A stretch of 64,000 nt of DNA. It comes from an uncultured Gammaproteobacteria bacterium. Lineage in GTDB: Bacteria > Patescibacteriota > Microgenomatia > Levybacterales > GWA1-39-11. Position numbers and translations under genes: made by a program. Below, one piece after another: positions 4,382 through 24,990 of the stretch. The notes below the pieces were generated by a model, which was not told the DNA's origin, did not search any database, and saw nothing but the letters and a program-made list of their open reading frames with translations. The first letter of the stretch is position 1, and each line of letters starts with the position of its first letter. The stretch is taken from positions 90,923-154,922 of the forward strand of contig CAZVGS010000002.1 of NCBI GenBank assembly GCA_964627245.1, in the 5' to 3' direction.

Positions 4382-5716
4382 ATGGACGAACTCTGGAAAA
4401 AAACACTTGAAGAAATTGAACTTGAGGTTTCAAAACCGCGCTTTGTTACTTTTTTCAAGCAAACCCAACTGGTATCAATAGAAGGGGATGTCGCGACAAT
4501 CTCTTCGCCTAACTATATGGCAAGCGCTTACATTGAGAAAAATTATTATTCTCTTGTTAAAAGAGCTTTGGACAAATATTCTGAAAAGAACCTAAGCCTT
4601 GTCTTTGTAACAAATTCAAAAGAAACACTAACCACTGACGGAGGACCTCTTTTTTCAAGCTCTGTAATAAAAAAAGCCGAGAAAAAACCCCTTGCCCGAA
4701 TACGGGAGGACTTCACCTTTGACACTTTCGCAGTTTCTGACAGCAATCAGCTGGCTTATACAGCGGCTATGGCTGTTGCGGAGGACCCCGGAGGAAAATA
4801 CAACCCCTTATTTCTATATGGAACTGTGGGGGTTGGAAAAACACATCTTATGAATTCCATAGCCAACATTGTTCACCAAAAAAAGGGAGGGGCGAGTATT
4901 ATCTACCTGACAACGGAGGAATTCACCAATGAAGTTGTCGAGGCCATACAATTCAAAACAACACAGCAATTAAGAAGAAAGTTCAGAAACGCAGACCTGT
5001 TACTGCTTGACGATATTCAATTTCTAACGGGTAAGGAAAAAGTTCAAGAAGAGCTTTTTCACACATTTAATGCTCTCATCGACAGAAAGGGTCAGGTCAT
5101 CTTCTCCTCAGACCGTCCCCCTCATGAATTAAGAAAAATCGAAGCTAGGCTGGCGTCCAGATTTGAGGGCGGCCTTACGGTTGATATTGAACCTCCCGAT
5201 TTTGAATTAAGAACAGCAATCCTCTTGATAAAAAGCGCAAAGTTCGGTTTTTCATTAACGCCTGACCTTGCAAAAATTATTGCACAAAAAGTTTCTGACT
5301 CAAGAGGGCTTGAGGGATTTTTACTAAAACTCTCATCTCTCTTATCAACCTCCAATTCCCCGGTCGTTACCGAAGAACTTATAAAGAAGTGCTTAGGCAA
5401 AAGCAGACAGGAAAAAACGGTTGTTCATCCAGACGATTTAATTAATGCTGTTTGTGAATTTTATGACATAAAGCAAACCCAGCTTAAGGGATCCAAGAGA
5501 GATGCTTCCCTGGTCAGGCCCAGACACATATGCATGTTTTTATTGAAAGAGCAGGGACTTACCTTTGTTGAAATAGGAAACCTTCTTGGAGGAAGAGATC
5601 ACACAACGGTTATGCACGGTGTGGAAAAGATTTCCAAGATGAGCCCAAAGACACCCTTTCTAAATGAGGAAATCATGTCGATAAAAAAGAGCATTACCAA
5701 CACTTATCTACAATGA
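4382..5716 (+). CDS. dnaA: chromosomal replication initiator protein DnaA
   Basis: 444 aa; AAA+ Walker A GTVGVGKTHL, Walker B LLLLDDIQFL, C-terminal DnaA DNA-binding domain (signature region around VRPRHICMFLLKE); followed by dnaN. Confidence 0.9.
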   Translation: MDELWKKTLEEIELEVSKPRFVTFFKQTQLVSIEGDVATISSPNYMASAYIEKNYYSLVKRALDKYSEKNLSLVFVTNSKETLTTDGGPLFSSSVIKKAEKKPLARIREDFTFDTFAVSDSNQLAYTAAMAVAEDPGGKYNPLFLYGTVGVGKTHLMNSIANIVHQKKGGASIIYLTTEEFTNEVVEAIQFKTTQQLRRKFRNADLLLLDDIQFLTGKEKVQEELFHTFNALIDRKGQVIFSSDRPPHELRKIEARLASRFEGGLTVDIEPPDFELRTAILLIKSAKFGFSLTPDLAKIIAQKVSDSRGLEGFLLKLSSLLSTSNSPVVTEELIKKCLGKSRQEKTVVHPDDLINAVCEFYDIKQTQLKGSKRDASLVRPRHICMFLLKEQGLTFVEIGNLLGGRDHTTVMHGVEKISKMSPKTPFLNEEIMSIKKSITNTYLQ

Positions 5717-5844: not shown

Positions 5845-6945
5845 ATGAAAGTATCTTTTCTTCCAGAAAACATAATTAAATATTTACCACTTATCAACAA
5901 GGCTCTACCATCCCACACACAGGTTCCAATCCTTTCAAACGTTTTATTAAAAGCTACAAAAGAAGGGTTGACCCTTGAAGCAACAGATCTTGAAATCGGG
6001 GTAAGGATTAAAATACCGTCAAAAATAGAAGAAGAAGGTTCAATAACGGTTCCCGGTAAAGAGTTCCTTGAAACAATAAACTCCCTTCCCAAGGAAAAAA
6101 TTTTATTAGAAAAAGACAAAGACTTACTTGTTTTAACCTGCATGGATAGCCGGGCTGTTTTTAATACAATTTCAGGTGAGGAATTCCCCCAACTATTAAA
6201 GGAAAAAGGAGACTTGGTTTTTAGGATGAAGAGAGAACAATTTGTCAGCGTTTTTTCAAACATTACGTTTTCAGTCTCACAGGAGGAATCAAGACCCCAG
6301 TTAACAGGGGTCTTTATTGAGGTTGTTGATGACGGGGTTAATTTTGTATCAACGGACGGTTACAGGATGACGATGAAGAAAATAAAAGAAAAAGAAGTAA
6401 AGAGAAAAGAAGGATTAATAGTTTCCGTCAAGCTTATAAATGAAGTAATTTCTCTTAAAGGAAGTGAGGATATAAGTCTTTTTGTAAATGAGAAAGAAAG
6501 CCAGGTGATTTTTGAAGTGGGAGACGTGCTTGTTATTGGAAGAATGATAGGAGGGGTCTTTCCTGATTATTTGAATGTATTACCAAAAAAATCCTTAACA
6601 AATATAGTTTTTGATAGGGAGGGGTTGCTTCAGAATGTCAAGCTAGCATCGGTTTTTGCAAAAGATAGTAGTAATATCGTAACGTTAAAAATAAAAAATG
6701 GAATTGTTTCTGTTGAAACAAAAACCCAAGGCATTGGAAGCGGGGAGGCAAGCGTCGATTGTGATCAAAAAGGGGAAGATGTACAAATAACTTTTAACAT
6801 CAAGTATCTGTCAGATGTTTTAAAAGCGGCTAATGGTAAAACGATAAAAATGGGTCTCAACTCATCTTCAGAACCCGCTTTGTTTGAAGACAAGGAATTT
6901 TTACACGTTATTATGCCCATTCAGGTGGAAGGGTTGGGTGGGTAG
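5845..6945 (+). CDS. dnaN: DNA polymerase III beta sliding clamp DnaN
   Basis: 366 aa; N-terminal MKVSFLPENIIKYLPLINKALPSH... typical of DnaN, three-domain length, immediately downstream of dnaA. Confidence 0.85.
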   Translation: MKVSFLPENIIKYLPLINKALPSHTQVPILSNVLLKATKEGLTLEATDLEIGVRIKIPSKIEEEGSITVPGKEFLETINSLPKEKILLEKDKDLLVLTCMDSRAVFNTISGEEFPQLLKEKGDLVFRMKREQFVSVFSNITFSVSQEESRPQLTGVFIEVVDDGVNFVSTDGYRMTMKKIKEKEVKRKEGLIVSVKLINEVISLKGSEDISLFVNEKESQVIFEVGDVLVIGRMIGGVFPDYLNVLPKKSLTNIVFDREGLLQNVKLASVFAKDSSNIVTLKIKNGIVSVETKTQGIGSGEASVDCDQKGEDVQITFNIKYLSDVLKAANGKTIKMGLNSSSEPALFEDKEFLHVIMPIQVEGLGG

Positions 6946-7434
6946 CTATTCTATGTCGAAGACTCCGCTTGGAACAGGTGGAACGTCTATTATTAGTGTA
7001 TATTCGTAGGGTGTGTAAAGTCTTTTATTTGATGTAGACACTGTTGTTGTGAGGATGGTTACTCTTGTGCTTCCAAGTTGCCATTTTGTCTTTGGGATTA
7101 TGTGGATTGTTTTTTTATCTTCTCCACCCCTAACGAAAACATCTGTTTGTGGTTCTATTTCATAGCGTAGATCTATTGGTCTAATTTCCTCGCTGAATCT
7201 GAGAGTGATTTTTTGAAAAGTGAGATATGGTTCAGTTGGGTTTTGGGGAGGAAGAGCGTTTTGTATGAAGAGGTCGGTGGGCTCAGGTGTGATAGTCGGT
7301 ACAACCGTAATAGTTGTTTTTGGGTAATCCGTGACGGGATCTGGTTTTTTGGAAAAAAAGAATATCAATAGAAGGAAAAGTGTAGCTAGAAGAATGCCAG
7401 AACTAAATATTAATAATTTTTTATTCATTTTCAT
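6946..7434 (-). CDS. hypothetical N-terminally membrane-anchored protein
   Basis: 162 aa; single N-terminal hydrophobic helix then a Pro/Thr-rich segment; no recognisable family; first gene of the T4SS-like block. Confidence 0.4.
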   Translation of the reverse strand: MKMNKKLLIFSSGILLATLFLLLIFFFSKKPDPVTDYPKTTITVVPTITPEPTDLFIQNALPPQNPTEPYLTFQKITLRFSEEIRPIDLRYEIEPQTDVFVRGGEDKKTIHIIPKTKWQLGSTRVTILTTTVSTSNKRLYTPYEYTLIIDVPPVPSGVFDIE

Positions 7435-7437
7435 TTT

Positions 7438-8064
7438 TTATTTACAAAAATAATTTGGCGCGTCTTGCCACGATTGGTTACCTGAGTTATCTATTTTTGC
7501 AAACTCGATGTGCAGGTGGGGACCGGATCCTGTGCTACACCCCGATTGGCAAATCTGAGCTCCTTTTTCTCCAGAGTAAATTTCCCCCCCGCCACTTCCG
7601 GGAGCAGTGTGGTGGAACTGTATCCAGTATTGGTCTTGGGTCTCCTCATCGGTTCCCCCATAGTATTGTATGGCCGTTATTCCATCGGGTCCAATGGTTT
7701 GGTGGCTAAAAGTCCATCTTATTTTTTTCCCGTTAACAAGGGGCATATAAACTGGATCTAGTGGTTGGGCGCCTATGTCCATCGCGTAAGCAAGGCTATT
7801 GTAGTTGCAAGGATAGCTTTCGTATCCAATTCCGCAATGCCCACAACCTGGGACAGGTACAGACCTGCTGCCGCAGGTGATGTTTCCGTTTGGAATCGGA
7901 CAGGAGGTTGCGTCTATGCTTTCGGGGCCACTAGAGCCTTGGGGGGGACTCCCGACTTTAGTTGTAACAGTGTTTGAGCTGTGCTCTTGAGAATAAGCAG
8001 CGACCGTTAAGAGAACCACTAATAGCAAGGGCAGTGTTAGAATGATTATTTTTTTCATGGACAA
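7438..8064 (-). CDS. secreted M23-family (LytM-like) metallopeptidase
   Basis: 208 aa; signal peptide; Cys-rich; C-terminal M23 HxH motif GPHLHIEF. Confidence 0.55.
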   Translation of the reverse strand: MSMKKIIILTLPLLLVVLLTVAAYSQEHSSNTVTTKVGSPPQGSSGPESIDATSCPIPNGNITCGSRSVPVPGCGHCGIGYESYPCNYNSLAYAMDIGAQPLDPVYMPLVNGKKIRWTFSHQTIGPDGITAIQYYGGTDEETQDQYWIQFHHTAPGSGGGEIYSGEKGAQICQSGCSTGSGPHLHIEFAKIDNSGNQSWQDAPNYFCK

Positions 8065-8588
8065 AAATCGGGATACGGGCCGAATTTTTCGTTATCTGGT
8101 ATGGATTTTGCAATCTCAAAATTTAAGTAAAACATTAAGGGGAGTTTGCATATCCCCTCGTCGCTAAAGCCTTTTTGCCTTAAGAAAGAGATAACGTCTT
8201 CTTTTGCTTTGGAAATTTGAGTAGTGATAATTTCAGCCTCAAAATCATTTGGTGCTTTTACATACTCCAGTCTGTAGGAGTTGGTGGAATTGATTATTCC
8301 CGAGTTTCCGTCAAGCTCTGAAATAATTTGACTTCTTAAGGTTTTGTCTGCTGTCAGGCCTGGCGTTGGTCTTGTGGTTACAACCACCAGCAGCTTGTCT
8401 GTTGATTCCTTGCTATATTCAACAACAGGATCATCTATTTTCCTTTCATTGCTAGCGGTGGATGTAGGGGATGGCGATTCTGTTGACGTGTCTTCTCCCC
8501 CATTCTTCAGGCTCTCAAGGAAGGTTATTCCTATGAGAATGAGTATAAAAAGAAAAATTCCGGTTCCGATTGCAAAAATTCTTTTCAT
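8055..8588 (-). CDS. hypothetical membrane-anchored protein
   Basis: ORF 8055..8618; internal Met (MKRIFAIGTGIFLF...) at 8588 avoids overlap with the upstream gene; one N-terminal TM; no family recognised. Confidence 0.35.
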   Translation of the reverse strand: MKRIFAIGTGIFLFILILIGITFLESLKNGGEDTSTESPSPTSTASNERKIDDPVVEYSKESTDKLLVVVTTRPTPGLTADKTLRSQIISELDGNSGIINSTNSYRLEYVKAPNDFEAEIITTQISKAKEDVISFLRQKGFSDEGICKLPLMFYLNFEIAKSIPDNEKFGPYPDFCP

Positions 8589-8589
8589 G

Positions 8590-9573
8590 TTAATTACTTG
8601 CGCACCCCCAATACGCAAAAGATGAGTTTATTAGATCTCTATTATATGTTACCGCATTTGATGTTTGAGAACTCCAGCCGACATCTCCATGGTCAAATTG
8701 TCCATTCCTCCCTTGTCCCATTTGAAAAAGTCCCCATGCTCCGACCGGATCAACGGCTGAGCCGTTGTACGCATTTGGATTGTACCCGCTTTCACAGGGC
8801 ACAATCTCGAAATACCATTTGTTAGCATTGCTAGGGTCAAGGCTTTGGAGGAGTCTGAATAGTGCATCTTTCGTGAATTGGCAGTCCGGATCACCAAAAT
8901 TTGCGCCAATAGGACTTGTTGCTAAGTTGTATTTCCCGCTGCAGCTGTTAGCGGTAGGATTTGCTCCGGCAGATGCACCCGATGCAACACCTGCATAGAC
9001 CGTATTTGTGATAAGTATATCGGGAGCCGTTGGGCGGAGGGTAAATGTAAAAGAATTTTGGTTTTGAGACATGGGCCAGGATATTTGGCCATTTTCGTAT
9101 GTATATGCTCCGGTCGCTTCAACAAAAGAAGTGTTGTCGGGTAAGATGTCGTAAACGACGATATCTGAAAGTGGCGTAGTCGCAACCGAGGGATTATAGG
9201 TTACGCTCACGGTGTACTGCAACTGCTCTCCATTATTTATTTCAACAGGGCCAGTCAGGGTCAGCGTTAGGCCCGGAATTGTTTGTTTGGGTTGAGATGA
9301 GTCTGTTGGAAGCGTTGGGATTGACCCTCCGGGAATTGGGTCCATAAGTCCGAAAACGATTGAAAAAAAGGCTAGAGCAAGAAGCGCGCCGATAATTATT
9401 GCACCTAAAGTCAGCGGCCCTCCGGGGAGAAAGCTGAACAGCCATCGAGCCGCTTGTATTAATTTTTTCCCCGTGCGGTATATTTTTTTTAGATTTTCTA
9501 CAGAGTCGGAGACGCTTTGTCCATCACGCTTTTTTTGATCTTTTTCATTATCAATACTTGCGATGTTTTCCAT
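8590..9573 (-). CDS. membrane-anchored protein with DUF11-like repeat domain and C-terminal transglycosylase-like (Rpf-like) domain; candidate VirB1-type cell-wall hydrolase
   Basis: 327 aa; N-terminal TM; central region resembling conserved-repeat-domain proteins (LQYTVSVTYNPSVATTPLSDIVVYDILPDNTSF); C-terminal CESGYNPNAYNGSAVDPVGAWGLFQM resembling the Transglycosylase-like family consensus CESGGNW...G.YGGLQF. Confidence 0.55.
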   Translation of the reverse strand: MENIASIDNEKDQKKRDGQSVSDSVENLKKIYRTGKKLIQAARWLFSFLPGGPLTLGAIIIGALLALAFFSIVFGLMDPIPGGSIPTLPTDSSQPKQTIPGLTLTLTGPVEINNGEQLQYTVSVTYNPSVATTPLSDIVVYDILPDNTSFVEATGAYTYENGQISWPMSQNQNSFTFTLRPTAPDILITNTVYAGVASGASAGANPTANSCSGKYNLATSPIGANFGDPDCQFTKDALFRLLQSLDPSNANKWYFEIVPCESGYNPNAYNGSAVDPVGAWGLFQMGQGRNGQFDHGDVGWSSQTSNAVTYNRDLINSSFAYWGCASN

Positions 9574-9579
9574 AAGGCT

Positions 9580-11718
9580 CTATTTTGGCTGTTGGCCTTG
9601 AAGCGGGAAAGACGATCCTTGTTGCGGGGAAGAAGGGATGGGTGGTTGATAGGTTGGGGTTTGGAAAGGAGGTTGGGTTGATTGAATGGTGGGGGGTACT
9701 AACGGCAGCGATTGTCCGGTCAGAGGAGTGGAGAGTGGGGTTGGGGTGTTTGTGAACTGTTGCCCCGGCGGATTTTGGGTACCCGGAAACTGTGGCGCGG
9801 ATTGGAGGGGTGGCGGCTGTTGCTGTTGTGGGGGGGTGCTTGGGGGAGGTGCTTCAAGCTCTCTTTCCATGGTGTCTTGGGGCCTTGAAGTAACAAGGTC
9901 GTACTCGAATTGAGATGCAACAAACTGAGCCGTTACGTGATTTTGACCTGCAAAAAGAAGACCTTCTCCAACCTGTGCCGTTAGGAGATATTGCTTTTCT
10001 CCCTCAGAAAGATTTAAGGTTTTTGCAAGCGCCTCTACTTCTGATGAGCCTTGCTTCAGTAATATCTGCATCGAGGAGCTTGAAAGTATAGCTTTTCCAT
10101 AGTCTGATGACAGAAAGTCTTCGATGTCTTGAGTAAGAGTAGTGAGTCCCAAATAATACTTACGGCAACGCTTTGCAATTCCCTGCAGAAACGAAGCCGA
10201 GTCAGGGTATTTCATCATGTACCAGGCCTCATCAACGATAAGTAGTCTCTTTTTCATTTTTGTTCTAACCCTTGTCCATATAAAATCCAAAATAACATGC
10301 ATGGCAATAGGTCTTAACACATCCTCAAGCTGTTTAAGTGAAAAAACAGTAAGCTGGTTTTTCACGTCATAATTGGTCTGGTGATTGAAAAGACCGGAAA
10401 ACCCTCCCTTGACGTATTTTTCAAGTCTAAATGCAAGCTCTTTTGCGTCCGCCTCCTCCATGTTGAGAAGGGTTTTGTAAAGATCTTCAAGAATTGGGGG
10501 TTCGTTTTTGTATGTTGAGGGATCCGGGGTAATCCCCTTTTGCTTGTAGGCAAGAACAATTGAGCGGTCCAGTATTGCTTCCTGCGTTGCGTTCATTTCT
10601 CCCATCATGGTTTTAAACAACCCATGTACGCTTAAAATTTTTGTTCCTAGCTGTGCCTCCGATTGGTCATCTGGCATAAGGGCGAAGGGATTTATCTTTA
10701 TCTCCGAATCTTTGGAAAAAGCAACATACTCTCCACCTAATGAGTCGCAAAGCACCTTGTACTCATCTTCGGGATCTATTATCATAACCTCGGCATCAAA
10801 CATCATTTGTCTCAAAACCTCAAGCTTAACAAGAAATGACTTACCGGAGCCGGATTTCCCAAAAACAACAGAATTGGCATTCTCAAACGAGAATCTGTCA
10901 ACCACAACAAGCGAATTATTTAGAGTATTTATACCGTAGAGTATACCGTTGGGATGCGATATTTCGTATGAGGTAAAGGGAAAAGTGGAAGCGACTGAGG
11001 TTGTATCCATGTTGCGCGTTGAGAAAAGCTTGTCAATTCCCGTTGGCAGAGTGGTCTTAAATCCGTCTTCCATCTGAAGGGTTGCGGGTTTTATCACCAA
11101 TAGATTGGATGACAAAAGAGACATGAGCTCTTTTGAGCGGAGATTGAGGTCTTCAAGGTCGCCTGAGGCAAGAGTTACGTAAAGCCCGAATTGATAAAAG
11201 CGCTCAAGACCTCTGGCTAACTCTTCCCGAAGCGCAATTGCATCCTCCAAAGACGCTCTTATTTTAGGATCCGGCTCAAGACCTTGCTGGGTGTCTGACT
11301 CGATTGTTGCTTCCATCTCGGCAATTTTACGCCTCAAGTTGGAAAGTACATCTTTTGACTCAACCGGGTATATGAACATAGAGATATTCATCGTTTCTTT
11401 GTAGTCGATAAGTATCGAAAGCCAGTTGGGTGAAACCTGACGGGGGTAATCAACGACAAAAAAAGTGCGGTAATATGTGTCGCCGACTCTTATGTTTTTG
11501 AAATCTACCTCAACCGACGAGGGAGCAATGATATCAACTATTCCTACAGATCCCTGCTTTAGAGCCTCTGTGCTTTTTGCATTTTGGGCAGGAGTGGGCG
11601 CTGCGGGAGGTGCTTGGACCGGCTGCTGTTGGGCATTTTGCACGGGTTGACCCTGAGCCTGTTGCGCTGTATTTGATTGGGGAGGATTTGGTTGTTCTTG
11701 TTTCTTTTTTCCAAACAT
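9580..11718 (-). CDS. virB4: type IV secretion ATPase VirB4 (Gram-positive PrgJ/TraE/TcpF-type) with low-complexity Pro/Gln-rich N- and C-terminal tails
   Basis: 712 aa; Walker A GKSGSGKSF, Walker B LLIVDEAWYMM; N-terminal core IAPSSVEVDFKNIRVGDTYYRTFFVVDYPRQVSPNWLS matches the Gram-positive VirB4 N-domain; roughly 50 aa N-terminal and 90 aa C-terminal Q/P-rich tails. Confidence 0.85.
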   Translation of the reverse strand: MFGKKKQEQPNPPQSNTAQQAQGQPVQNAQQQPVQAPPAAPTPAQNAKSTEALKQGSVGIVDIIAPSSVEVDFKNIRVGDTYYRTFFVVDYPRQVSPNWLSILIDYKETMNISMFIYPVESKDVLSNLRRKIAEMEATIESDTQQGLEPDPKIRASLEDAIALREELARGLERFYQFGLYVTLASGDLEDLNLRSKELMSLLSSNLLVIKPATLQMEDGFKTTLPTGIDKLFSTRNMDTTSVASTFPFTSYEISHPNGILYGINTLNNSLVVVDRFSFENANSVVFGKSGSGKSFLVKLEVLRQMMFDAEVMIIDPEDEYKVLCDSLGGEYVAFSKDSEIKINPFALMPDDQSEAQLGTKILSVHGLFKTMMGEMNATQEAILDRSIVLAYKQKGITPDPSTYKNEPPILEDLYKTLLNMEEADAKELAFRLEKYVKGGFSGLFNHQTNYDVKNQLTVFSLKQLEDVLRPIAMHVILDFIWTRVRTKMKKRLLIVDEAWYMMKYPDSASFLQGIAKRCRKYYLGLTTLTQDIEDFLSSDYGKAILSSSSMQILLKQGSSEVEALAKTLNLSEGEKQYLLTAQVGEGLLFAGQNHVTAQFVASQFEYDLVTSRPQDTMERELEAPPPSTPPQQQQPPPLQSAPQFPGTQNPPGQQFTNTPTPLSTPLTGQSLPLVPPTIQSTQPPFQTPTYQPPIPSSPQQGSSFPLQGQQPK

Positions 11719-11719
11719 A

Positions 11720-12373
11720 TCAAACGATTACATTTTTAATATCTTGTGAATCAAAATCAACGGTAATTGAGTCGTTGTTGAGAATTTCATAATAAAGTTT
11801 TATCAACTCTTCATGCGACAATGGTCTTGCCATAAGACCCATTCTTTCAACCTGAGCCTGAATAACAGCCCTTTTTGAAATCAAAGCGTTTTTTGCCTGA
11901 TCCGCGAAGGGTCCGCTCGTGCCTTGCTTGGATTTTGCTTGTTGTGGCGCACTGCCCGGAACGACGCTTGCCTCAAGGTAAGAGTACGGAACCACTATGT
12001 ATATCTTTTTATCCAAAAGACCTTCGTTTTTTACCAGCTCATCAATGAATTGCCTGTACATTGTTAAATGCTCTTTGAGTTTTTGGTTTTGAAGTGATTC
12101 GATTTTTTGATCCAAAAGTTTTAGGTAGTTACCCATATCAACTCTTTTTGAGACAATTAAAATTTGTATAGGAAATGAAAGTGAATTTATGAGAGACATA
12201 TATCCGTAAATTCTTGCGTTCTGCTCATCTGCTGATAAGAGAAAAAAATTAACGGATGAGATCTCAAGAACACAGCAGGCATTTTTTCCCTTAAAGAGTA
12301 CTATGTCACCAACTATGTCGACAATTTCGGTAAAGTCTTGTGTTGTTGAGTGGATTTTGTCTTTTTTTGACAT
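11720..12373 (-). CDS. hypothetical protein in T4SS block
   Basis: 217 aa, soluble, no recognisable motif; translationally coupled between the PrgI-like gene and virB4. Confidence 0.35.
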   Translation of the reverse strand: MSKKDKIHSTTQDFTEIVDIVGDIVLFKGKNACCVLEISSVNFFLLSADEQNARIYGYMSLINSLSFPIQILIVSKRVDMGNYLKLLDQKIESLQNQKLKEHLTMYRQFIDELVKNEGLLDKKIYIVVPYSYLEASVVPGSAPQQAKSKQGTSGPFADQAKNALISKRAVIQAQVERMGLMARPLSHEELIKLYYEILNNDSITVDFDSQDIKNVIV

Positions 12374-12376: not shown

Positions 12377-13687
12377 TTATGCTTGCTGTGCGGTTTGGGG
12401 TGCCTGGTTCTCAAAAAGCTCGCGTCTTAGTCTTTCCCGCTGGTCAACAGAAACAATCTCGAGGGGCTCGAATAAATTTCCATCAAGTGCTATGTGTATT
12501 TGTTCAAATTCGTGTTGTTTTCTCGGGTCCTCCAGAAGAACATTGTATTCGCCGTCGGGAAGCGGGGTTGCGGCCGCAAATTGCCCAAGCGCATTAGTCT
12601 TAAAAGCTCTTACGGGAATTCCCTGAAGATCCATTATCTCAACCAATATATTCGGAAGTATTCTCCCTCTTGGGTCTTTGATTATACCCAAAACAATATT
12701 TGGGGCATCTGGAAGACTTGGAAATCCACCTTTCAGAGAGGTTTCTTTCGAAAGCGTTGTAACATTTTGAGATTCATTGGGAATTACTGTTGGGATCTTT
12801 GCTTCATTTCCTTGAACGACCGTAAGATCCTTAGGCGCTTGGGGGGGCGCTTGTTGCTGGGTCTGGATGGGAGGCTGTTGGGGGATCAGGTTTTCCATTT
12901 TGATCTCCTCAGGCTTTCCCCCTTCAAATACGGGCTTTGAATCTGTTTCCTGGACAGCCGGCGAAGGTTTTGCTATCGGGGTCTCCTTCGGAAGATTGGC
13001 CGGCGAGACAACTTTTATTGCATCTGAAATGCTTGTTTGAGGAATAGCAGACGGCTGTGCTATTTGGGTAGAACGCTGAGTTTCATTGGGGGGGGAGTCT
13101 ACTTTTTGGACTTGAGGGCTCGCCGAATGCTGGGATTCATTTAAGTAGTTATTTATATTTAAGAGCATTGCCTGCTCGCGCTCGTCGGGCCGGTAGTTCT
13201 TTTTAAGCGCCCCGTATAGAAGAGCTCTTTTTGAGGAGAGGGCACTATTATTTTCGGTTTTTTTCACCTCTATTTTTTGGGATGCTGTGCTTTGAGGTGA
13301 GAAAAATTCGCCGATAATTACCTCGGCACCCCTTTTTTTGTATATGTATTGGTTTTCGGCAGGAAGTGCCTTCAGGAAATTCTTTGCCATTACATCCATC
13401 GGACGCCCTTCAATAGGAACAAAAGCAAGCATTACGCCAAAGCTTCCAAAAAGTATGCTCAAAGGAATTTTTATGAAAGGTGTCATCGGCAAGATAAAAC
13501 AAACTGCGGCAACTATTCCGCCTCCTAAAATATAAAGAAATTGCTTGACCGTAACGCTTCCAATAAGCTTGAATTTAAATCCTGTAACGTCCTGCGGAAT
13601 AGGGTGGTTTTCCATAATAATAACAAACACACCAAGTTGATGCGCCGTTGTTAAGCGTATAACGTGAAAATTTTGTCTGCAAGACAA
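12377..13687 (-). CDS. PrgI/VirB3-like two-TM protein with long Pro/Gln-rich linker and C-terminal beta-sandwich-like domain
   Basis: N-terminus DVTGFKFKLIGSVTVKQFLYILGGGIVAAVCFIL...PIEGRPMDVMAKNFLKAL matches the PrgI-family two-helix layout that precedes VirB4 in Gram-positive systems; a more likely start is Met at 13615 (MENHPIP...); C-terminal 110 aa (GRILPNILVEIMDLQGIPV...) resembles a carboxypeptidase-regulatory/prealbumin-like fold. Confidence 0.5.
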   Translation of the reverse strand: MSCRQNFHVIRLTTAHQLGVFVIIMENHPIPQDVTGFKFKLIGSVTVKQFLYILGGGIVAAVCFILPMTPFIKIPLSILFGSFGVMLAFVPIEGRPMDVMAKNFLKALPAENQYIYKKRGAEVIIGEFFSPQSTASQKIEVKKTENNSALSSKRALLYGALKKNYRPDEREQAMLLNINNYLNESQHSASPQVQKVDSPPNETQRSTQIAQPSAIPQTSISDAIKVVSPANLPKETPIAKPSPAVQETDSKPVFEGGKPEEIKMENLIPQQPPIQTQQQAPPQAPKDLTVVQGNEAKIPTVIPNESQNVTTLSKETSLKGGFPSLPDAPNIVLGIIKDPRGRILPNILVEIMDLQGIPVRAFKTNALGQFAAATPLPDGEYNVLLEDPRKQHEFEQIHIALDGNLFEPLEIVSVDQRERLRRELFENQAPQTAQQA

Positions 13688-13738: not shown

Positions 13739-15811
13739 CTAAAGAGCCCCCGACCAAGCGGCTCCGCCCGCGGCTTTTGCCCCAGCGCCTGCCGCAACAG
13801 CAATAGGTGCTATTCCAATCCCCGCAACCGCACCAACTCCAAGAATTGCAGCAAGCCAGATAAGCCACTTCATCTTGAAGTCGGGTCTTATGCCTTGAGC
13901 CTCAAGGTTTTTAATAATTCCTTGGGCTTCTTTCGATTTTGAAATTGCATCGGATAGCTTCCCAGAGAAATTTTGTTCTAAAAGTTCCCATTCATGTTTT
14001 TTGAGGCCAATTTTATGTGTTCCGGGTATTCTGTCCTTCAATCTACTTCCCAACGTGCGGGCCAAGAACATGTCTTTGAAGAGCTTGTTTCTGAGAGTCT
14101 CGCCGTGTTTTGAATATGCTTCCTCAAGCCGTTTCTTTTGATCCTCACTTAACTTTGTTAAATCTACAGTGCGGTAATCGACTGGGTCAGGAATGGGGTT
14201 GCCATCTTCATCAATAAGAGTGAATCCAAGCTCGCGTACCAACAACCTTTTGACCCCATCTTCACCTTCATAAGCAAGCATTCTAACGTCTGTATTGATT
14301 TGTGCAGTATCGGAATCTTTAGACCTAGTATTTGGGTCATATCGTATCCATCTTGTTTCCATTGCTTTTTTGATTGCTTCATCGTCTGAATTGTTTTGTT
14401 TTTCTTTGTCCTCAGTTAGAGCTTTTTTCTCAAGCCCTTCTAGCTCATCGTATCTTTTCTCCAGAGTAGAGGCGGCCGCATCAGCCATAACGTTTTCAAG
14501 TCTCTCTATCAGATCTTGTTCAGCAGCCAGCCTTGCATTTTTGCTTGCCTTTTCGCTTTTCAAGGAATCAGACTCTTTTCTCTTTATAATGTCATCACTA
14601 GCCTTGATTTCTTTTCCGAGTGCCGATGCTTCTGAAATGCTTTGCGCAATACCACTTACATAAATTCCCGCAGCGTCTTTTGCTGGTGAATATTTAGTTA
14701 ATAAATCGACAAAGTTGTTTATGTCTGTGTCTGACACAACCGTTCCTTTTAGTACATTTATGTCACCTAATAAATTGTTTATGTCATTTTGCAGTCCGCC
14801 CCTTTCGGCAGGCTTCGATGTTTTATTAAGTCTTTCTTTTGTTTGGGAGATTTCCCTTTGCTTCTCGACTATTGCTTGAAGCTCGGTAAACTTAGGTATA
14901 TTTGTTCCATTTATGACAAGTCCACCCAAGCTTTTCATAATTGTTTCTGGTGCCATTCCCTGGTCTATCCAGCTTTTTATCTGATCTTCTTGTGCAGGAG
15001 TTAATGGAGGAGTAGCGGAAATATCAGCACGTATAACATTTAGAATATTTGTTTTTGCCGTGTCGAGTTTCGGTTCAGCAATTGCCTTATCGGCTTTCGC
15101 TTTTGAATAATCTTCGTCAGTTGTTACATCCGGAAGCTTTTGGGCATCTACAGCTATGTTTTTCATAAGTTTTACAACTTCATTTCTCATCACAGGATCT
15201 TTGGCAAGCGTTTCTTCGATGTAACGTCTTCTTGCACCATCATTGAGAGATGATAGTTCTGGAAATAGTTCCTGGACTGTTGAGCTTTGAAGAATTAGGT
15301 TCAAACCATCCTCTCGCGCATTGATGAAATCTCTTGTATTACTTATGCTTGTATCTCCCCTTGCTACTCTTTCTCTAATAACTACATCAATGGATTTATT
15401 CCTTCTTCCTGCCTCTGCAGTGATATCAGCATACTGGATATAATTACTAACACCCTCAATTAGTTGTTTGGCGGTTTCGTGAGAGTTTTTTTCAGCATTG
15501 TCTGGATTTTTCGTACTATCCGGTTCTGTGGTTTGTTTTCCTGTGGCACTCACAACCTCATGCGCTTTACCTGCTCCGAATGCCAATTCCATAGCAACTG
15601 CTTGATTTGTTGAGAAAGAGCCGGCTCCGGATTCTCGGGCTGCTGTTATTCTTTCTTTCCCGGTAGCACCTTTCTCTTTAAGAGCTCTTAGTCTTTTTTG
15701 TCTCTCAAGCGTTTCGGGGCGTGTCGTTGGGATCGTGCGTGTTTCGCTTCCATATTGCAGTACATCTATCGGAGCAATTTTGGGTGTTTCTGGTGTTGAA
15801 ATGTCCGGCAT
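13739..15811 (-). CDS. large coiled-coil protein with C-terminal Gly/Ala-rich hydrophobic anchor (tail-anchored); hypothetical T4SS-associated
   Basis: 690 aa, no signal peptide, extensive coiled-coil or charged repeats, C-terminus WLIWLAAILGVGAVAGIGIAPIAVAAGAGAKAAGGAAWSGAL; no family recognised. Confidence 0.4.
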   Translation of the reverse strand: MPDISTPETPKIAPIDVLQYGSETRTIPTTRPETLERQKRLRALKEKGATGKERITAARESGAGSFSTNQAVAMELAFGAGKAHEVVSATGKQTTEPDSTKNPDNAEKNSHETAKQLIEGVSNYIQYADITAEAGRRNKSIDVVIRERVARGDTSISNTRDFINAREDGLNLILQSSTVQELFPELSSLNDGARRRYIEETLAKDPVMRNEVVKLMKNIAVDAQKLPDVTTDEDYSKAKADKAIAEPKLDTAKTNILNVIRADISATPPLTPAQEDQIKSWIDQGMAPETIMKSLGGLVINGTNIPKFTELQAIVEKQREISQTKERLNKTSKPAERGGLQNDINNLLGDINVLKGTVVSDTDINNFVDLLTKYSPAKDAAGIYVSGIAQSISEASALGKEIKASDDIIKRKESDSLKSEKASKNARLAAEQDLIERLENVMADAAASTLEKRYDELEGLEKKALTEDKEKQNNSDDEAIKKAMETRWIRYDPNTRSKDSDTAQINTDVRMLAYEGEDGVKRLLVRELGFTLIDEDGNPIPDPVDYRTVDLTKLSEDQKKRLEEAYSKHGETLRNKLFKDMFLARTLGSRLKDRIPGTHKIGLKKHEWELLEQNFSGKLSDAISKSKEAQGIIKNLEAQGIRPDFKMKWLIWLAAILGVGAVAGIGIAPIAVAAGAGAKAAGGAAWSGAL

Positions 15812-15812
15812 A

Positions 15813-16157
15813 TTATTGGATGCTTCTTATCTGTTCTTGTGCTTGTTGAAGTTGCACGTTGTCTTGTTTTTTAGCTTCTTCTGCTTGTAGCTCAGAATAA
15901 AAACTTTTATAAACAGGCCATAGAGTAGAAAGCTTGTTCAGAAAATCCATTAAGTCTTTCCTTGTGCTTAAGACTTCTAGTTGTTCAAGAATAAACTGAG
16001 CAGAGGTTTGTGAGTCCTCATCTGTAAGCGCATTCGCCTCAAGACCTTCAAGCATTGCATCGGCCAATCTAGTATAGATGCTATTTTTTTCCTCCTCGGT
16101 AACCTGGTCATAATTGTCCATATATACACAATACGTCAAGTTGAGTGAGGCTGTCAA
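15813..16157 (-). CDS. small acidic hypothetical protein
   Basis: 114 aa, strongly acidic, helical; sits between the pilin genes and the 690 aa protein. Confidence 0.3.
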   Translation of the reverse strand: MTASLNLTYCVYMDNYDQVTEEEKNSIYTRLADAMLEGLEANALTDEDSQTSAQFILEQLEVLSTRKDLMDFLNKLSTLWPVYKSFYSELQAEEAKKQDNVQLQQAQEQIRSIQ

Positions 16158-16161: not shown

Positions 16162-16458
16162 CTAGAGGGTGGGGTTTTGGATTTGACTGACTCCTGTGAG
16201 CTGGGAGATAAATCCGACGATAAAAAATGAAAGAAAGATAACGATAAGTCCAACTATCGTATACGTTGCTGTTTTTTTGGCCATGGCAACTTTTTCAGGA
16301 TCTCCTTTTGAAGTTATATACATTATGCCTGCATAGATAAAGAGAATAAGGGCAACAAGACCCGAAAAGGCAAGAGCGGCATTAACGATATTTCTTACAA
16401 TAATTGGAATACAGGCAAGAGTTGCGACGCCGTTTTCAAGACATTGGTCCCAAGGCAT
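16162..16458 (-). CDS. VirB2/TrbC-like pilin paralog 1
   Basis: 98 aa; two hydrophobic helices separated by the SxGDxxKVxxAxxxI motif (YITSKGDPEKVAMAKKTATYTIVGLIV) shared by all four tandem genes; Cys pair in the N-terminal region. Confidence 0.6.
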   Translation of the reverse strand: MPWDQCLENGVATLACIPIIVRNIVNAALAFSGLVALILFIYAGIMYITSKGDPEKVAMAKKTATYTIVGLIVIFLSFFIVGFISQLTGVSQIQNPTL

Positions 16459-16463
16459 AAAAT

Positions 16464-16874
16464 TTATTCACCGCTGAGGGTAGGAAGCTGAAGGTCAAAT
16501 AGGCTAAGTCCGAATAGCTGAAGAACGAGGTTGAGTATGAAAAATGCCAAGAATACTACGATAAGGCCAATTACGGCAGCAATTATTTGATTTCTTGCAG
16601 CTTCAACTCCTGCTTTGTCACCACCAGACGTTATCCATTTGATGCCTCCCCACACGAGGAAAAGAAGGGCAACGAGTACCGCAATAACAAATGCTATTGT
16701 TACGATAAAACCTACCAATTGACCTATGCTTCTATCGGATCCTGCGCATGCTTGCTTCAGAATTCCCGTCGCACCTTCGCAAGGATTGAGGTCTTTGGTG
16801 TCTGCAGCGTATACAGAGACAGCTGTTGCAAGATATACGGGGGCAGTTCCGAGGACAGCTAATACTTTTTTCAT
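16464..16874 (-). CDS. VirB2/TrbC-like pilin paralog 2 (with signal peptide)
   Basis: 136 aa; signal peptide ending ...SVYAADT; Cys pair (NPCEGATGILKQAC); WITSGGDKAGVEAARNQIIAAVIGLIVVFLAFFI motif. Confidence 0.6.
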   Translation of the reverse strand: MKKVLAVLGTAPVYLATAVSVYAADTKDLNPCEGATGILKQACAGSDRSIGQLVGFIVTIAFVIAVLVALLFLVWGGIKWITSGGDKAGVEAARNQIIAAVIGLIVVFLAFFILNLVLQLFGLSLFDLQLPTLSGE

Positions 16875-16918
16875 AGATAATTAATTGTTAACAGGTTTGT
16901 TATTCCTTGTCAAGCATT

Positions 16919-17260
16919 CTATATGGTAAGGTTAAAAAAGTTAACCCCAAGCGCCGAGCCTACAAAATTGATAATAAAAAAGGAGAAAAAGACGACCAAA
17001 AGCCCTATTATCGCGTAAATAATGGTGCGTCTGGCGCTTTCAACTTTTGTTTTGTCCCCCTCAGACATTATGTAATTTGCGCCTCCATATATTAGAAAAA
17101 GCAGAGCGATAATAATGCTTGCGATAAGAAGCCAGGTGATAACAAGTCCTATTATTCTTCCTCCATCTCCCTCAAGTCCTCCTGTCGGAACCCCGGAGGG
17201 CGCAGCTATTTCAATGGGTTCGCCGTCAGTGCCCGGAATGGTTAATGATAAAAGTTTCAT
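16919..17260 (-). CDS. VirB2/TrbC-like pilin paralog 3
   Basis: 113 aa; YIMSEGDKTKVESARRTIIYAIIGLLVVFFSFFI motif; Gly-rich N-terminal region. Confidence 0.55.
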   Translation of the reverse strand: MKLLSLTIPGTDGEPIEIAAPSGVPTGGLEGDGGRIIGLVITWLLIASIIIALLFLIYGGANYIMSEGDKTKVESARRTIIYAIIGLLVVFFSFFIINFVGSALGVNFFNLTI

Positions 17261-17262
17261 AA

Positions 17263-17688
17263 TTAATTAAAGCCCGGAATTTTTATAATGTCTCCTGCTA
17301 TTACTGATAGTATCACAAGCGAGAATACTATAAAAAGAAGCCCGACAATTGCCGATGTTAAGGTCTCGCGTGCTCCCTGGACAATTTCTTTATTGGCTCT
17401 TGAAACGAGGAGCTTGTATCCTGAAAAAATAATAATTATTAGTGCTGCAAATCCTCCCAACGAAAGTGCAATTGAGAATATTTTGGTAACAACCACAACC
17501 GGGCTTGAAACATCAACTATTCCTATTGCTGTATCGCACTTATTATTCGGACAAGGTTCCTTAGATGTTGCTGAACCTCCTCCCCCCGGGGGAGGATTGC
17601 TGGCAGTGTCGGCTAGGGTTGGAAAAGTAATAAACATAAGAAGGGTTATTGCTAAAAGCAACGGCAGGTTTATTAAAAATTTTTTCAT
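17263..17688 (-). CDS. VirB2/TrbC-like pilin paralog 4 (with signal peptide)
   Basis: 141 aa; signal peptide; Cys pair (EPCPNNKCD); LLVSRANKEIVQGARETLTSAIVGLLFIVFSLVI motif. Confidence 0.55.
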   Translation of the reverse strand: MKKFLINLPLLLAITLLMFITFPTLADTASNPPPGGGGSATSKEPCPNNKCDTAIGIVDVSSPVVVVTKIFSIALSLGGFAALIIIIFSGYKLLVSRANKEIVQGARETLTSAIVGLLFIVFSLVILSVIAGDIIKIPGFN

Positions 17689-22014: not shown

Positions 22015-24264
22015 CTAAGCAGATCCTTCCGGCTTTTCGGGCTCATCAGGTGCTGTGTCCGGTTGGGGTGCTTCCGGAGCCGGGCTATCTGCTGCTGGGT
22101 GCTCGGGTTCTGTCTCACCGCTTCTTCCTATTTCGCTTCCGTCAGCTTCTCCGCCTGCCATACGCGCTCTAGATCTTTCCATGACTTCGCGTTTTGTTTT
22201 TTCAGCAAGTGTTTCTCCCTCAATAGATGGAGAGGTGGCTCCCGAAGTGCCTCCGGGCCTTGTAGCACTAGCAATTGTAGATTTTTTCTTGCCACCAAAA
22301 ATTGAAGGTAGCCAGCCAACTTTATGCTCTGACTTCTCCTTTTCACTCATTCCCCTCATGCTTAATCCTTCATTTGTATGCGTTTGTTTAATTCCTCCGC
22401 CCGTAAGGGCTCTGCCAATCCCTGCAAATTTTCTCTGAGCCCATAGGGAGCCTTCCTTTGGAGCGCCAAGTGCGTCTTTACCGAATAATTCGTGTTTTAT
22501 CCCAGATATTGGCTTGCCCAAGGCTCCTTGCCCAGTACCAAGAGCACGTCCTATGGAGCTTGCAAATTTGAAGTCTTGAGCCTTTAGAGTCTCTTTTACT
22601 ATATTTGCAACCTCAGGTGTCAGAAGCAATATTCCCATGCCTAAAATTGCCGCAAACCCGGCCATGCTATTGCTGAAGTCACCGACAAGAGGTGGTATAA
22701 AAACATTTCCGTTGCTTTGTCCGACACTGTCAATTAAGACCTTACCTAAAAGAAGCATCATATAAGTTGCGGGAAAGACTGCTAAATTTGCAACTACGCT
22801 TCGAAACCAAGACCCGACCCCCATCTGTACCCCCGGGAGTATGCCAAATGCTATAAAGAAAGGAGCAAAAATTAGAAAAAGGAAAAGGTAAATATAGGCT
22901 TTTATCAGCTGAAACCATAACCGGAACATTGCAGTAAAAATAGCAATAAGTATGATAAAAAAGGCAATAAGGTTTGGTAAGAGTTCTCTTAATAAAGTTT
23001 CTGTAAGTGCAGCAACTGCTCCTCCAGCTATTGTTCCAGCTGGCCAGCCCATTAAAAAGCCAGGTATTACTTGAAATCCTCCCCCTCCCCCTATTCCCAG
23101 GAAAGATCCTTGTATTGAAAACCCCCCACCAGGAGTATTTGATACTAGAGTTCCAACTTGTATTCCAGCAACAAAACCTGCTCCTATACTCGCTGCATGT
23201 ATTAAATAATTCACAAAACTCTGATTTGCAAAACTTCCCACAGTACCTTTCGCTATATTGCCTAGACCTCCAATCAGCCCTCCTATGAGCGGGATCTTAC
23301 TTAGCAATGAACCAAGTTCACTTAGACCGGGGATATGTTTTATTATACTGCCAAATATATCACCAATACCTTTAATTTCGGGTAGGCCAGGAATACTTGG
23401 GCCGCCTCCGGGGCCAAGACCTATAGCATCTTTAATAGAACCGACAACGGTTCCTGTTACGTGAGTTGCTATTCCGGCAATCCCTCCGGCATTAGTGCCG
23501 CCTGCCAATTGATTGGCTGCCGTAAAAGGATTTGCTCCCTGAATATCCGATGGTTTGAGCCCGCCGACATCGGCCCCGGGAATACTTGCCATAATTCCGT
23601 AAATAAAATAAGTGCTAATTCTCATAAGATCAATCATAAATCCGACAATTGCGTAGGAAAGAGTAATAAAGACAAGGCCGATTATTATCTTTGGAATTGC
23701 ATTTTGAATTGTCATAACACTTCTAGGGTCAATTTTTACACGAAACATTATTCCAACTCCGATAACGACAAATATAAGAACAAAAAATAAATACATTATA
23801 TTTCTAAAAGCTTCCCAGATAGGTAAAAATGGAGTAAGTCCGCGGAACCCATCCCCGGTCCCGAATTGCGCATTGGCAGTCTTTGTGAGGCCAAAATTTG
23901 AGGCAACGTGCGCAATGTATTGACTTCCTGATGCAGGAAAATCATAAGTAGCTGCAATTCCCCTGTTCATAAATCCCAAAGCGCCTCCGCTTTCAACAAA
24001 CCCGATTTTCCCATCATTCCCGCTTGCTCCCAGGCATTTTCCTTCAGGGTTAATGGGGTTAATTCCCGAAAGCTGGCAGGAGATGGCAGACATCAGCTCA
24101 ATAAATACAACCTGTGAATAGGTACTTAAATTTTGCGGTACATTTTGCTCAATATTTAAGGGGAGGGATTGATTTGGGGGGGGAGTTAAATTTTGGGCAA
24201 AGGATGAGTTAGTAGAAAGTGCTAGGAAAAATACAGCAAAGATAACACCAAATATTTTTTTCAT
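22015..24264 (-). CDS. VirB6/TrbL-like polytopic membrane protein with disordered Pro/Glu-rich C-terminus
   Basis: 749 aa; signal peptide, then at least six hydrophobic helices separated by Gly-rich loops, hydrophilic C-terminal tail; position next to other T4SS genes; family assignment by topology only. Confidence 0.45.
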   Translation of the reverse strand: MKKIFGVIFAVFFLALSTNSSFAQNLTPPPNQSLPLNIEQNVPQNLSTYSQVVFIELMSAISCQLSGINPINPEGKCLGASGNDGKIGFVESGGALGFMNRGIAATYDFPASGSQYIAHVASNFGLTKTANAQFGTGDGFRGLTPFLPIWEAFRNIMYLFFVLIFVVIGVGIMFRVKIDPRSVMTIQNAIPKIIIGLVFITLSYAIVGFMIDLMRISTYFIYGIMASIPGADVGGLKPSDIQGANPFTAANQLAGGTNAGGIAGIATHVTGTVVGSIKDAIGLGPGGGPSIPGLPEIKGIGDIFGSIIKHIPGLSELGSLLSKIPLIGGLIGGLGNIAKGTVGSFANQSFVNYLIHAASIGAGFVAGIQVGTLVSNTPGGGFSIQGSFLGIGGGGGFQVIPGFLMGWPAGTIAGGAVAALTETLLRELLPNLIAFFIILIAIFTAMFRLWFQLIKAYIYLFLFLIFAPFFIAFGILPGVQMGVGSWFRSVVANLAVFPATYMMLLLGKVLIDSVGQSNGNVFIPPLVGDFSNSMAGFAAILGMGILLLTPEVANIVKETLKAQDFKFASSIGRALGTGQGALGKPISGIKHELFGKDALGAPKEGSLWAQRKFAGIGRALTGGGIKQTHTNEGLSMRGMSEKEKSEHKVGWLPSIFGGKKKSTIASATRPGGTSGATSPSIEGETLAEKTKREVMERSRARMAGGEADGSEIGRSGETEPEHPAADSPAPEAPQPDTAPDEPEKPEGSA

Positions 24265-24348: not shown

Positions 24349-24990
24349 TTGACATGGGAAAGTCTGGGGAGTAGTATACAAAGACCAATGAAAAGGGCGG
24401 TTTTTCTCCTCATTTTTATGTTTTTGGCGCTTTTGGTATTTCCAAGATCAGATTCTTTCGCGCAGGAAAACGTAGTCGAAACAGAGACTCCCATCGGAGA
24501 AAGTGAAACGGCAACGGAAAGTGCCCCAACCGTTACAAAAGTAAATTACGAGCTGCCGTATCCCGGAATGCTTCCCGACAACCCATTCTATTTTTTGAAA
24601 GTTATAAGGGATGGGATTGTTAAGATGTTAATAAACGATGATCTTAAAAGAGCGCGCTTTAGTCTTGAAAGCGGGGAGAAGAGAATGTATGCAGGAAAAC
24701 TTTTGGTAGAGAAAAATAAAGACGAACTGGCTGTTGAGACTATCTCAAAAAGCAATAATTATCTAGACGATGCGCTAAAGGCGATAGTAATATACATGAA
24801 AGCGCATCCCAAAAATACGGACGCAAAACAATTTCTCCACCAATTTGATTCTGCGGTCAGGAAGCATATGGAAATAGCAGGCGAGATAAAAGACAAAGTA
24901 GATAAAAATTACCAAAACCTTTTTGCAAAAGAGCAAGAAAGAATGAAAAAAATAGAACAAAGTGTAAAAGGCTTGCTCCTCAGCAGTTAG
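24349..24990 (+). CDS. secreted DUF5667-like protein
   Basis: 213 aa (probable start MKRAVFLL at 24388); signal peptide; PGMLPDNPFYFLKVIRDGI resembles the DUF5667 N-terminal motif; coiled-coil. Confidence 0.4.
   Translation: MTWESLGSSIQRPMKRAVFLLIFMFLALLVFPRSDSFAQENVVETETPIGESETATESAPTVTKVNYELPYPGMLPDNPFYFLKVIRDGIVKMLINDDLKRARFSLESGEKRMYAGKLLVEKNKDELAVETISKSNNYLDDALKAIVIYMKAHPKNTDAKQFLHQFDSAVRKHMEIAGEIKDKVDKNYQNLFAKEQERMKKIEQSVKGLLLSS

Follow-up and report, generated by a model that had tools for sequence, protein, structure and literature searches.

Four tandem VirB2-superfamily pilin genes of a chromosomal type IV secretion locus: probably old, specialized classes in a fixed order

Introduction

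A stretch of 64,000 nucleotides (nt), hereafter the window, carries four consecutive small pilin-like genes on its minus strand (17688-16162), which we named p4, p3, p2, and p1 in the order of transcription. The question raised by this locus is what a bacterium does with four divergent pilin paralogs in a row. The original prediction, made from the DNA alone, offered two answers: antigenic or host-range variation of a surface filament, or distinct major and minor pilins. Our comparison favored the second answer, because the copies are ancient, positionally fixed orthogroups and a consensus promoter is found at p2 only; the orthology, the differing architectures, and the p2 promoter disfavored variation. 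With a probability of about 0.6, the array encodes four VirB2-superfamily membrane-hairpin pilins of a chromosomal, origin-proximal type IV secretion system (T4SS) of the monoderm type, representing four old specialized classes in a fixed order. The host appears to be a Levybacteria-like bacterium (Microgenomatia, Patescibacteria).

Such arrays have been described before in two papers. A pilin series within the T4SS cluster of Southlakia epibionticum was reported as essential (Wang et al. 2023, Cell; PMC10633639). A survey employing PF18895 and PF04956 counted, across 383 assemblies, 441 arrays that each comprise 2-11 pilin genes, in tandem or with one gene in between (Quiñonero-Coronel et al. 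2025, Microb Genom; PMC12102498). The arrays were particularly common in Microgenomatia and Saccharimonadia, and identity averaged 25%. According to that survey, the T4SS genes often lie near dnaA/dnaN, TrsD is frequent, a relaxase is absent from most clusters, and, as in the parallel cases of Bartonella and Anaplasma, the paralogs may help in adapting to various hosts. A 2025 review described a possible pilus on a monoderm as "intriguing" and speculated on a conduit (PMC12857230).

The window array does not differ in kind from the published ones. It has the same tandem, divergent PF18895/VirB2-like genes beside a VirB4/TrsD/PrgI cluster and the same chromosomal site near dnaA/dnaN, with no relaxase and with the coupling protein elsewhere. 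The features by which the survey recognized such arrays were all present, namely four tandem genes, low identity, and a nearby VirB4 that is of the CD1110 type by profile. This kind of array is thus already published, and the window adds no new kind of system. Whereas the published arrays were presented as variable sets with host-adaptation versatility, the Levybacteria-type loci analyzed here form a unit of four fixed classes in a fixed order with a dedicated promoter on one member, which was not found in the passages of either paper that were examined. The additions are small and testable: an architecture of four fixed classes, a promoter at p2, and a p4 class that carries an ectodomain.

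Pilin arrays linked to a T4SS are among the most intriguing traits of Patescibacteria. In the one species tested, epibiotic growth requires both the T4SS and its pilins, and the cargo and the formation of a pilus are the questions of the field. For one large lineage, the pilins would resolve into four fixed specialized classes, including a promoter-equipped candidate major subunit and an ectodomain-carrying class. This result points experimenters to the gene to use for tagging, knock-down, or a filament search, and argues against regarding the arrays as mere variation cassettes.

Fixed order and positional orthology of the pilin genes

Seventy-nine related loci (L001-L079) were collected via orthologs of p2 and searched with a hidden Markov model (HMM) of the family, and their pilin open reading frames (ORFs) were classed against the four of the window. 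The order p4-p3-p2-p1 was observed in 30 of the 79 loci. Shortened orders were observed in a further 17 (p3-p2-p1 in 11 and p2-p1 in six), several of them at contig ends.

Exactly four pilin ORFs were present in 36 of the loci, and the C-terminal 100 residues were compared among these. For 142 of the 144 proteins, the best match in any other locus stood at the same place in the array, indicating that the duplications predate the divergence of these genomes. Median scores between different positions were equal within a locus and between loci, and thus there was no sign of gene conversion or concerted evolution. On these alignments, p4-p3-p2-p1 are ancient, positionally fixed orthogroups. The recent lineage-specific duplication or gene conversion of the Bartonella/Anaplasma model was not observed for the window array. 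Furthermore, the pilins are not hypervariable; in close relatives, their identity to the window proteins was 52-74%, similar to that of the PrgI-like protein and the regulator, compared to 79-90% for VirB4.

Architecture of the four proteins

The ORF list contained the four genes, of 98 (p1), 136 (p2), 113 (p3), and 141 (p4) amino acids (aa), exactly where they had been predicted (Table 1). The intervals p4-p3, p3-p2, and p2-p1 measure 2, 44, and 5 nt, respectively. The same four gene calls had been made independently in public assemblies carrying an identical array, and a search of the window with the family HMM found no further copy. Across the four-protein alignment, identity to p1 was 30-41%.

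The helix-loop-helix architecture proposed for all four proteins was confirmed by hydropathy, which gave two long hydrophobic segments with a short charged loop between them in every one. The AlphaFold2 model of p2 is a helical hairpin (helices 48-81 and 86-119) with a predicted local distance difference test (pLDDT) score of 84-92 over residues 48-119. The loop motif originally proposed for the set, SxGDxxKVxxAxxxI, is exact only in p3. What all four have in common is the core S..(G/A)(D/N)...V..A(K/R), in which S, V, A, and the following K/R are the invariant residues.

The proteins differ ahead of the hairpin. An extra N-terminal hydrophobic segment follows "MKK" in p2 and p4 and ends in VYA before A (p2) or TLA before D (p4). 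Judged by eye, these N-termini of the MKK-hydrophobic-AxA type look like Sec signal peptides, and no signal peptide was seen by inspection in p1 and p3, in agreement with the two expected. The three expected Cys pairs were located ahead of the first helix in p1 (C6/C16), p2 (C32/C43), and p4 (C46/C51); p3 is free of Cys. The pair of p1 lies in a short conserved N-tail (MPWDQCLENGVATLAC) that precedes the two-helix pilin domain. In p2, the Cys pair closes an exposed loop, and both the pair and the hairpin loop WITSGGDKxGVEAARNQ are invariant in the ortholog alignment. Ahead of its two-helix pilin domain, p3 has an acidic, Gly-rich N-tail of ~35 residues in which the motif PxGxPTGGL is conserved. 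In p4, a short exposed segment (GGGG, CPNNKC, TAIG) leads into the C-terminal two-helix pilin domain, which ends in IIKIPGFN. The p3 tail agrees with the one Gly-rich N-terminus of the original prediction, and p4 also has a GGGG run.

A promoter-like element and a conserved hairpin in p2

The p3-p2 gap contains a promoter-like element that scored 10/12 in the consensus scan. Its -10 box stops 9 nt short of the p2 ATG, so a transcript starting there would be leaderless or nearly so. Across loci, this gap has otherwise diverged, yet CTTGACAA and a -10-like box were kept. The pattern TTGACA-N16-19-[TA]ANNNT was sought within 100 nt upstream of each gene. It was found before p2 in 63 of 77 loci, compared to 0/49 for p4, 1/54 for p3, 1/72 for p1, and 0.7% of random windows. 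In the relatives, the -10 box of p2 usually ends ~10 nt before the start codon. We infer from this consensus match that p2 has its own -35/-10 promoter. Because only 5 nt separate the two genes, p1 is presumably co-transcribed with p2 in this genome. In the relatives, no terminator or attenuator hairpin was found after p2 (median z-score 0.19). No Shine-Dalgarno sequence was visible ahead of the pilin genes, and the upstream regions suggest that mRNAs of this genome are commonly leaderless or nearly so.

Conservation also sets p2 apart: of the four pilins, it is the one whose hairpin is best conserved and whose exposed N-terminus varies most. The median identity of p2 to its orthologs was 63.9% in the hairpin and 18.5% in the exposed N-terminal segment; the corresponding values for p1 were 51% in the hairpin and 53% in the N-tail. 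A conserved core with a variable, Cys-bracketed exposed segment is the usual signature of the subunit of a bulk surface polymer. Together with the consensus promoter, this combination of a highly conserved hairpin and a highly variable disulfide-closed surface loop makes p2 the best candidate for the bulk, or major, subunit.

Two further observations concern these intergenic regions. In distant relatives (L016, L021, L030, L033, L036, L042, L059, and others), a p2-p1 gap of ~50 nt contains a conserved T-rich tract, then TGCTA(N3)T near the start codon, which resembles an extended -10 motif; this gap was lost in the clade of the window, where p1 begins 5 nt after p2. Elsewhere in the window, the same -35/-10 geometry, 6-10 nt before an ATG, was found at 1090-1118 (+), 24349-24377 (+), and 16128-16157 (-), preceding a ClpB-like gene, a DUF5667 gene, and the 102-aa gene after p1, respectively.

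Family membership

Profile matches were read against the gathering scores of PF18895 (T4SS_pilin; 26.6 bits) and PF04956 (TrbC; 27.9 bits) and the cut-off of NF045849 (40 bits). With PF18895, p1, p2, p3, and p4 scored 48.2, 45.7, 29.2, and 25.1 bits, respectively, with E-values down to 1e-12; the p4 score is 1.5 bits below the gathering score. Public precomputed annotations carry the PF18895 label on all four proteins, as "weak" on two. Orthologs of p4 scored 26.0-40.9 bits, and six of the seven valid ones were above the threshold, with the L002 ortholog (26.0) just under it. The profile also matched 33 of 34 pilins of related arrays. Database homologs of p2 numbered 440 at E<=1e-3, and among the 120 listed, identity was 46-100%. 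The PF18895 match is not due to chance, because all four proteins match, the p4 orthologs score higher than p4 itself, the genes were called independently, and p2 has these 440 homologs. The identity of the four as T4SS_pilin-family proteins of a patescibacterial T4SS is therefore secure. Given this and the T4SS operon context, the VirB2/TrbC-like identity originally proposed holds at the superfamily level.

The profile similarity to TrbC/VirB2, on which the original prediction had staked this identity, was detectable but weak. PF04956 gave sub-threshold scores for p1 (18.5 bits, E 0.0023) and p4 (12.9 bits) and no match for p2 and p3; among the 34 related array pilins, three matched at E<=0.01, the best at 2e-5. 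Eight genuine VirB2/TrbC proteins were taken from plasmids found by tblastn with A. tumefaciens VirB2. Alignment of the 34 array pilins with these eight by hhalign gave a probability of 19% (E 0.0012, 63 columns). The alignment was in register over the first transmembrane (TM) helix, the loop, and the second TM helix, the loop of the window family being ~7 residues longer. Searching the PDB with the p2 model by Foldseek gave no significant match (best E 2), the hairpin being too simple to discriminate; the Aeropyrum pernix conjugation pilus 8dfu appeared at rank 37 with a non-significant TM-score of 0.64 on the target. The HMM of the 34 array pilins found only spurious TM or designed-protein matches among PDB sequences.

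The window pilins resemble VirB2/TrbC/TraA (PF04956; T-pilus and F-pilus) in their small helix-loop-helix hairpin, in the signal peptides of some, and in their VirB3 and VirB4 neighbors. They differ by scoring below the PF04956 threshold, by their longer loop with its own SxGDK..VE.AR motif, and by a monoderm host without VirB5, VirB7, VirB9, and VirB10. Four specialized paralogs stand here against one major pilin there, and the cyclization and acetylation enzymes were not recognized here.

A second comparison is with the Mycoplasma integrative and conjugative element (ICE) protein Mbov_0395 (NF045849), which belongs to the same monoderm MPF-FATA type and is likewise a small pilin-like hairpin near VirB4. 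All four window pilins matched this profile over nearly its full length (28.4, 24.3, 26.8, and 20.1 bits; E 1e-6 to 4e-4). With scores of 20-28 bits, below the cut-off, they are non-members; moreover, the Mycoplasma elements are mobile ICEs, whereas the window locus is chromosomal and origin-proximal. The matches suggest that pilin-like hairpins exist in monoderm MPF-FATA systems, which bears on the published question of whether patescibacterial pilins were co-opted from diderm T4SSs.

The Bartonella Trw and Anaplasma phagocytophilum loci share with the window tandem, divergent VirB2-like genes in the T4SS locus of a host-dependent bacterium. According to PMC12102498, those arrays are read as lineage-specific amplification for surface variation, whereas the window copies are ancient, positionally orthologous, and architecturally distinct.

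The p4 class and its ectodomain

In most relatives, the p4 position is occupied by a protein of 300-670 aa with a signal peptide, a Cys-rich ectodomain, and a C-terminal pilin hairpin ending in ILKIPGF. The ectodomain of these long orthologs comprises 270-570 aa with 10-14 Cys residues, and their N-terminal domain had no Pfam family and no PDB relative by profile. The short forms of L001, L050, and the window retain just the membrane-proximal CxxxxC..TAIG segment. Such forms, with lengths of 126-141 aa, are also common elsewhere, and a database search with the window p4 returned proteins of 91-241 aa. By its sequence, the window p4 is a short form, and the large ectodomain is absent in this genome.

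Proposed assembly and alternative explanations

In the assembly that we propose by analogy with VirB2/TraA, each pilin would insert into the cytoplasmic membrane so that both termini face outward while the charged SxGD..V..AR loop stays cytoplasmic. Insertion would proceed via cleavable Sec signal peptides for p2 and p4 and via the translocated short acidic N-tail for p1 and p3. The VirB4/TrsD/VirB3-like machinery would then extract the pilins and polymerize them into a wall-spanning tube or pilus. Here, p3 and p4 would be lower-abundance accessory pilins, and the p4 class would be a carrier module displaying its Cys-rich ectodomain, possibly as an adhesin or tip piece. Because no relaxase was found in the scanned ORFs, use of such a filament for host contact or exchange is more likely than conjugation.

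Several points weigh against this interpretation. For the signal peptides and the topology, the assessment relies on inspection and hydropathy only. The p2 promoter is a consensus match, with no mapped transcription start. An extended -10 motif lies upstream of p1 in 24/72 and of p3 in 12/55 loci (background 5%), so p2 is not the sole separately transcribed gene in distant relatives. Larger arrays elsewhere carry several p2-like copies, up to 5-6, so the p2 class has expanded to some extent in particular lineages. Both Pfam and hhalign gave weak similarity to bona fide TrbC/VirB2, and the fold search, with a best E of 2, did not discriminate. Finally, in the literature examined, no VirB2-type filament has been reported on any Patescibacterium, and the thin filaments of Ca. 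Mycosynbacter amalyticus that were solved belong to the unrelated Ig-fold "Pam" system (Ig, immunoglobulin; bioRxiv 10.64898/2026.03.03.709456). We also considered, and rejected, the Pam pilus as the identity of the array products: Pam pilins have an Ig fold, assemble by donor-strand exchange, and are encoded in a different operon, and the preprint mentions no T4SS.

The main rival, to which we assign a rather low probability, is that the proteins are VirB2-like but form no extended pilus. They would instead build a short T4SS stalk or channel embedded in the membrane or wall, or act as membrane chaperones or adaptors. This would agree with monoderm T4SSs normally lacking pili (PMC12857230). 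In addition, VirB2-type filaments are unobserved in the candidate phyla radiation, where the solved filaments of one species are Pam pili, and no VirB5-like or VirB1-like gene was recognized in the locus by profile scans. Three observations point the other way, none of them decisively: the conserved core and variable disulfide-closed exposed loop of p2 are typical of a surface-exposed polymer, the large ectodomains of the p4 class make most sense on an exposed structure, and having a strong promoter to itself suggests that p2 is a structural protein made in bulk.

Clearly less probable is that the genes offer a repertoire of major pilins to choose from, whether for evading phages or for varying antigens or host range, as proposed for the VirB2 paralogs of Bartonella and Anaplasma and suggested for Patescibacteria in PMC12102498. 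The strong divergence of the paralogs (30-41% identity), the great differences between species in the exposed N-terminal segments of p2 and p4, and the expansion of p2-like copies to 5-6 in some related loci would all suit a repertoire. However, each paralog forms its own orthogroup in a kept order, with 142/144 best matches at the same position and no extra similarity within a locus. The four architectures differ in signal peptide, Cys pair, and role as ectodomain carrier, the consensus promoter occurs at p2 only, and the N-tails of p1 and p3 are conserved. Moreover, the Southlakia pilin series was reported as essential rather than dispensable (PMC10633639). Variation is therefore disfavored for the four-gene core, but it may apply to the p2-like expansions and to the divergence of the exposed p2 loop between species.

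The remaining possibility, that these are unrelated two-TM membrane proteins (holin-like or stress proteins) resembling pilins by hydrophobic composition alone, could draw on weak cross-matches to many TM families, the hhalign probability of only 19% against VirB2, and the lack of a significant PDB match, but it is effectively refuted by the specific PF18895 matches (E down to 1e-12), the sub-threshold NF045849 matches of all four, and the tight, persistent synteny with the VirB3-like, TrsD-like, and VirB4 genes.

The four specialized classes can also be read more boldly, in a form that we offer tentatively and consider doubtful. They would be obligatory components of an ordered heteromeric filament, with p2/p1 as the bulk, p3 as an accessory, and p4 as a modular ectodomain carrier. 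Here, p2, with p1, would be transcribed from the dedicated near-leaderless promoter. The p4 hairpin would plug a swappable ectodomain into the filament, replacing the VirB5 tip or adhesin role of Gram-negative systems, and this genome would represent a natural ectodomain-less state. If true, the VirB2 hairpin would serve as a polymerizable anchor for adhesin domains in a monoderm, of which no T4SS description was found in the literature examined.

Locus and operon context

The locus is chromosomal, a long minus-strand operon next to dnaA (4382-5716) and dnaN (5845-6945). In the direction of transcription, it encodes the regulator, the four pilins, a variable pair, the PrgI/VirB3-like protein, the TrsD-like protein, VirB4, and small secreted or anchored proteins (Table 1). 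A mobile-element origin was considered and found unsupported, since no relaxase was found, the flanks are housekeeping genes, and the G+C content is like that of the surroundings. Among the ORFs scanned in the window, none had a relaxase domain.

Table 1. Features of the pilin locus in the window and long p4 orthologs in related loci.
Feature	Position	Strand	Remarks
p4, first pilin gene	17263-17688	-	141 aa; ORF list
p3, second pilin gene	16919-17260	-	113 aa; ORF list
p2, third pilin gene	16464-16874	-	136 aa; ORF list
p1, fourth pilin gene	16162-16458	-	98 aa; ORF list
Promoter-like element, p3-p2 gap	16884-16913	-	TTGACA (16913-16908), 18 nt, AACAAT (16889-16884)
AAA-type NTPase region with C-terminal OmpR/PhoB-type winged helix	17726-19057	-	Trans_reg_C 3.1e-19
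Variable insert, pilins to core T4SS genes	13739-16157	-	114-aa and 690-aa proteins, no Pfam assignment
PrgI/VirB3-like membrane protein with extracellular extension	12377-13687	-	PF12666 6.6e-07, 30.2 bits, cut-off 27
TrsD-like protein, resembles the N-terminal part of VirB4	11720-12373	-	VirB4_plasma and TrsD NF041427, both sub-threshold
VirB4-family ATPase, monoderm CD1110/MPF-FATA-like	9580-11718	-	NF045971 405 bits, cut-off 325
VirD4-like coupling protein, unlinked, ~20 kb from the array	37024-39462	-	TrwB_AAD_bind 1.7e-08, TraG-D_C 1.5e-04
Long p4 orthologs	L002:8238-9512, L007:8194-9585, L011:7726-9597, L031:2713-4656		

The AAA-type and winged-helix protein is a putative and likely dedicated regulator of the pilin/T4SS operon; in 48 of the 79 related loci, a homolog directly precedes the array, on either strand. 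Homologs of the PrgI/VirB3-like, TrsD-like, and VirB4 genes were syntenic in 46-51 of the 79 loci (51 for the PrgI/VirB3-like gene). The VirB4 gene lies 4.4 kb downstream of the pilins on the same strand, and its product also matched PF19044 (8e-35) and AAA_10 (3e-14). The TrsD-like protein matched positions 97-235 of the NCBIfam profile VirB4_plasma at 2.4e-10 and NF041427 at 5.2e-05, with 81-86% identity in close relatives.

Lying between the pilins and the T4SS core, the variable insert encodes a soluble small protein (a 114-aa ORF, called as 102 aa elsewhere), with homologs in 12 of the 79 syntenic loci. It also encodes a charged 690-aa protein with a single C-terminal TM anchor (residues 647-678), with homologs in six of the 79. 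Within the locus, it is this pair that is truly fast-evolving or replaceable, and the two proteins are a candidate cargo for the surface or for host interaction. Between VirB4 and dnaN (6946-9573, -), four small signal-anchored proteins of 327, 187, 208, and 162 aa are encoded, the first with a DUF11 Ig-like repeat; they are patchily kept, in 25, 13, 3, and 2 related loci.

A 749-aa polytopic membrane protein with ~5-6 TM segments and no Pfam family (22015-24264, -) lies beside the array in 52 of the 79 loci and has 336 homologs. A possible identity is the "missing" VirB6/PrgH of Microgenomatia in a highly divergent form. Its candidacy as a divergent VirB6 was not upheld by modeling: the AlphaFold2 model had a mean pLDDT of 58, and Foldseek gave no significant match. 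Chains of the R388 TrwJ/VirB5-TrwI/VirB6 stalk complex recurred in that search at E 1.5-2.8 and TM-scores of 0.2-0.3, as a hint only.

The named homologs belong to Levybacteria/Levyibacteriota. Many records that carry the patescibacterial locus are titled "uncultured Gammaproteobacteria bacterium", Lysobacterales, Sulfotelmatobacter, or Acidiferrales, and record titles in that collection are unreliable for taxonomy. Lastly, the VirD4-like gene adjoins a gene for a SpoIID-domain protein and a tRNA-Ile(TAT) gene with an uncommon anticodon at 36931-37003 (+).

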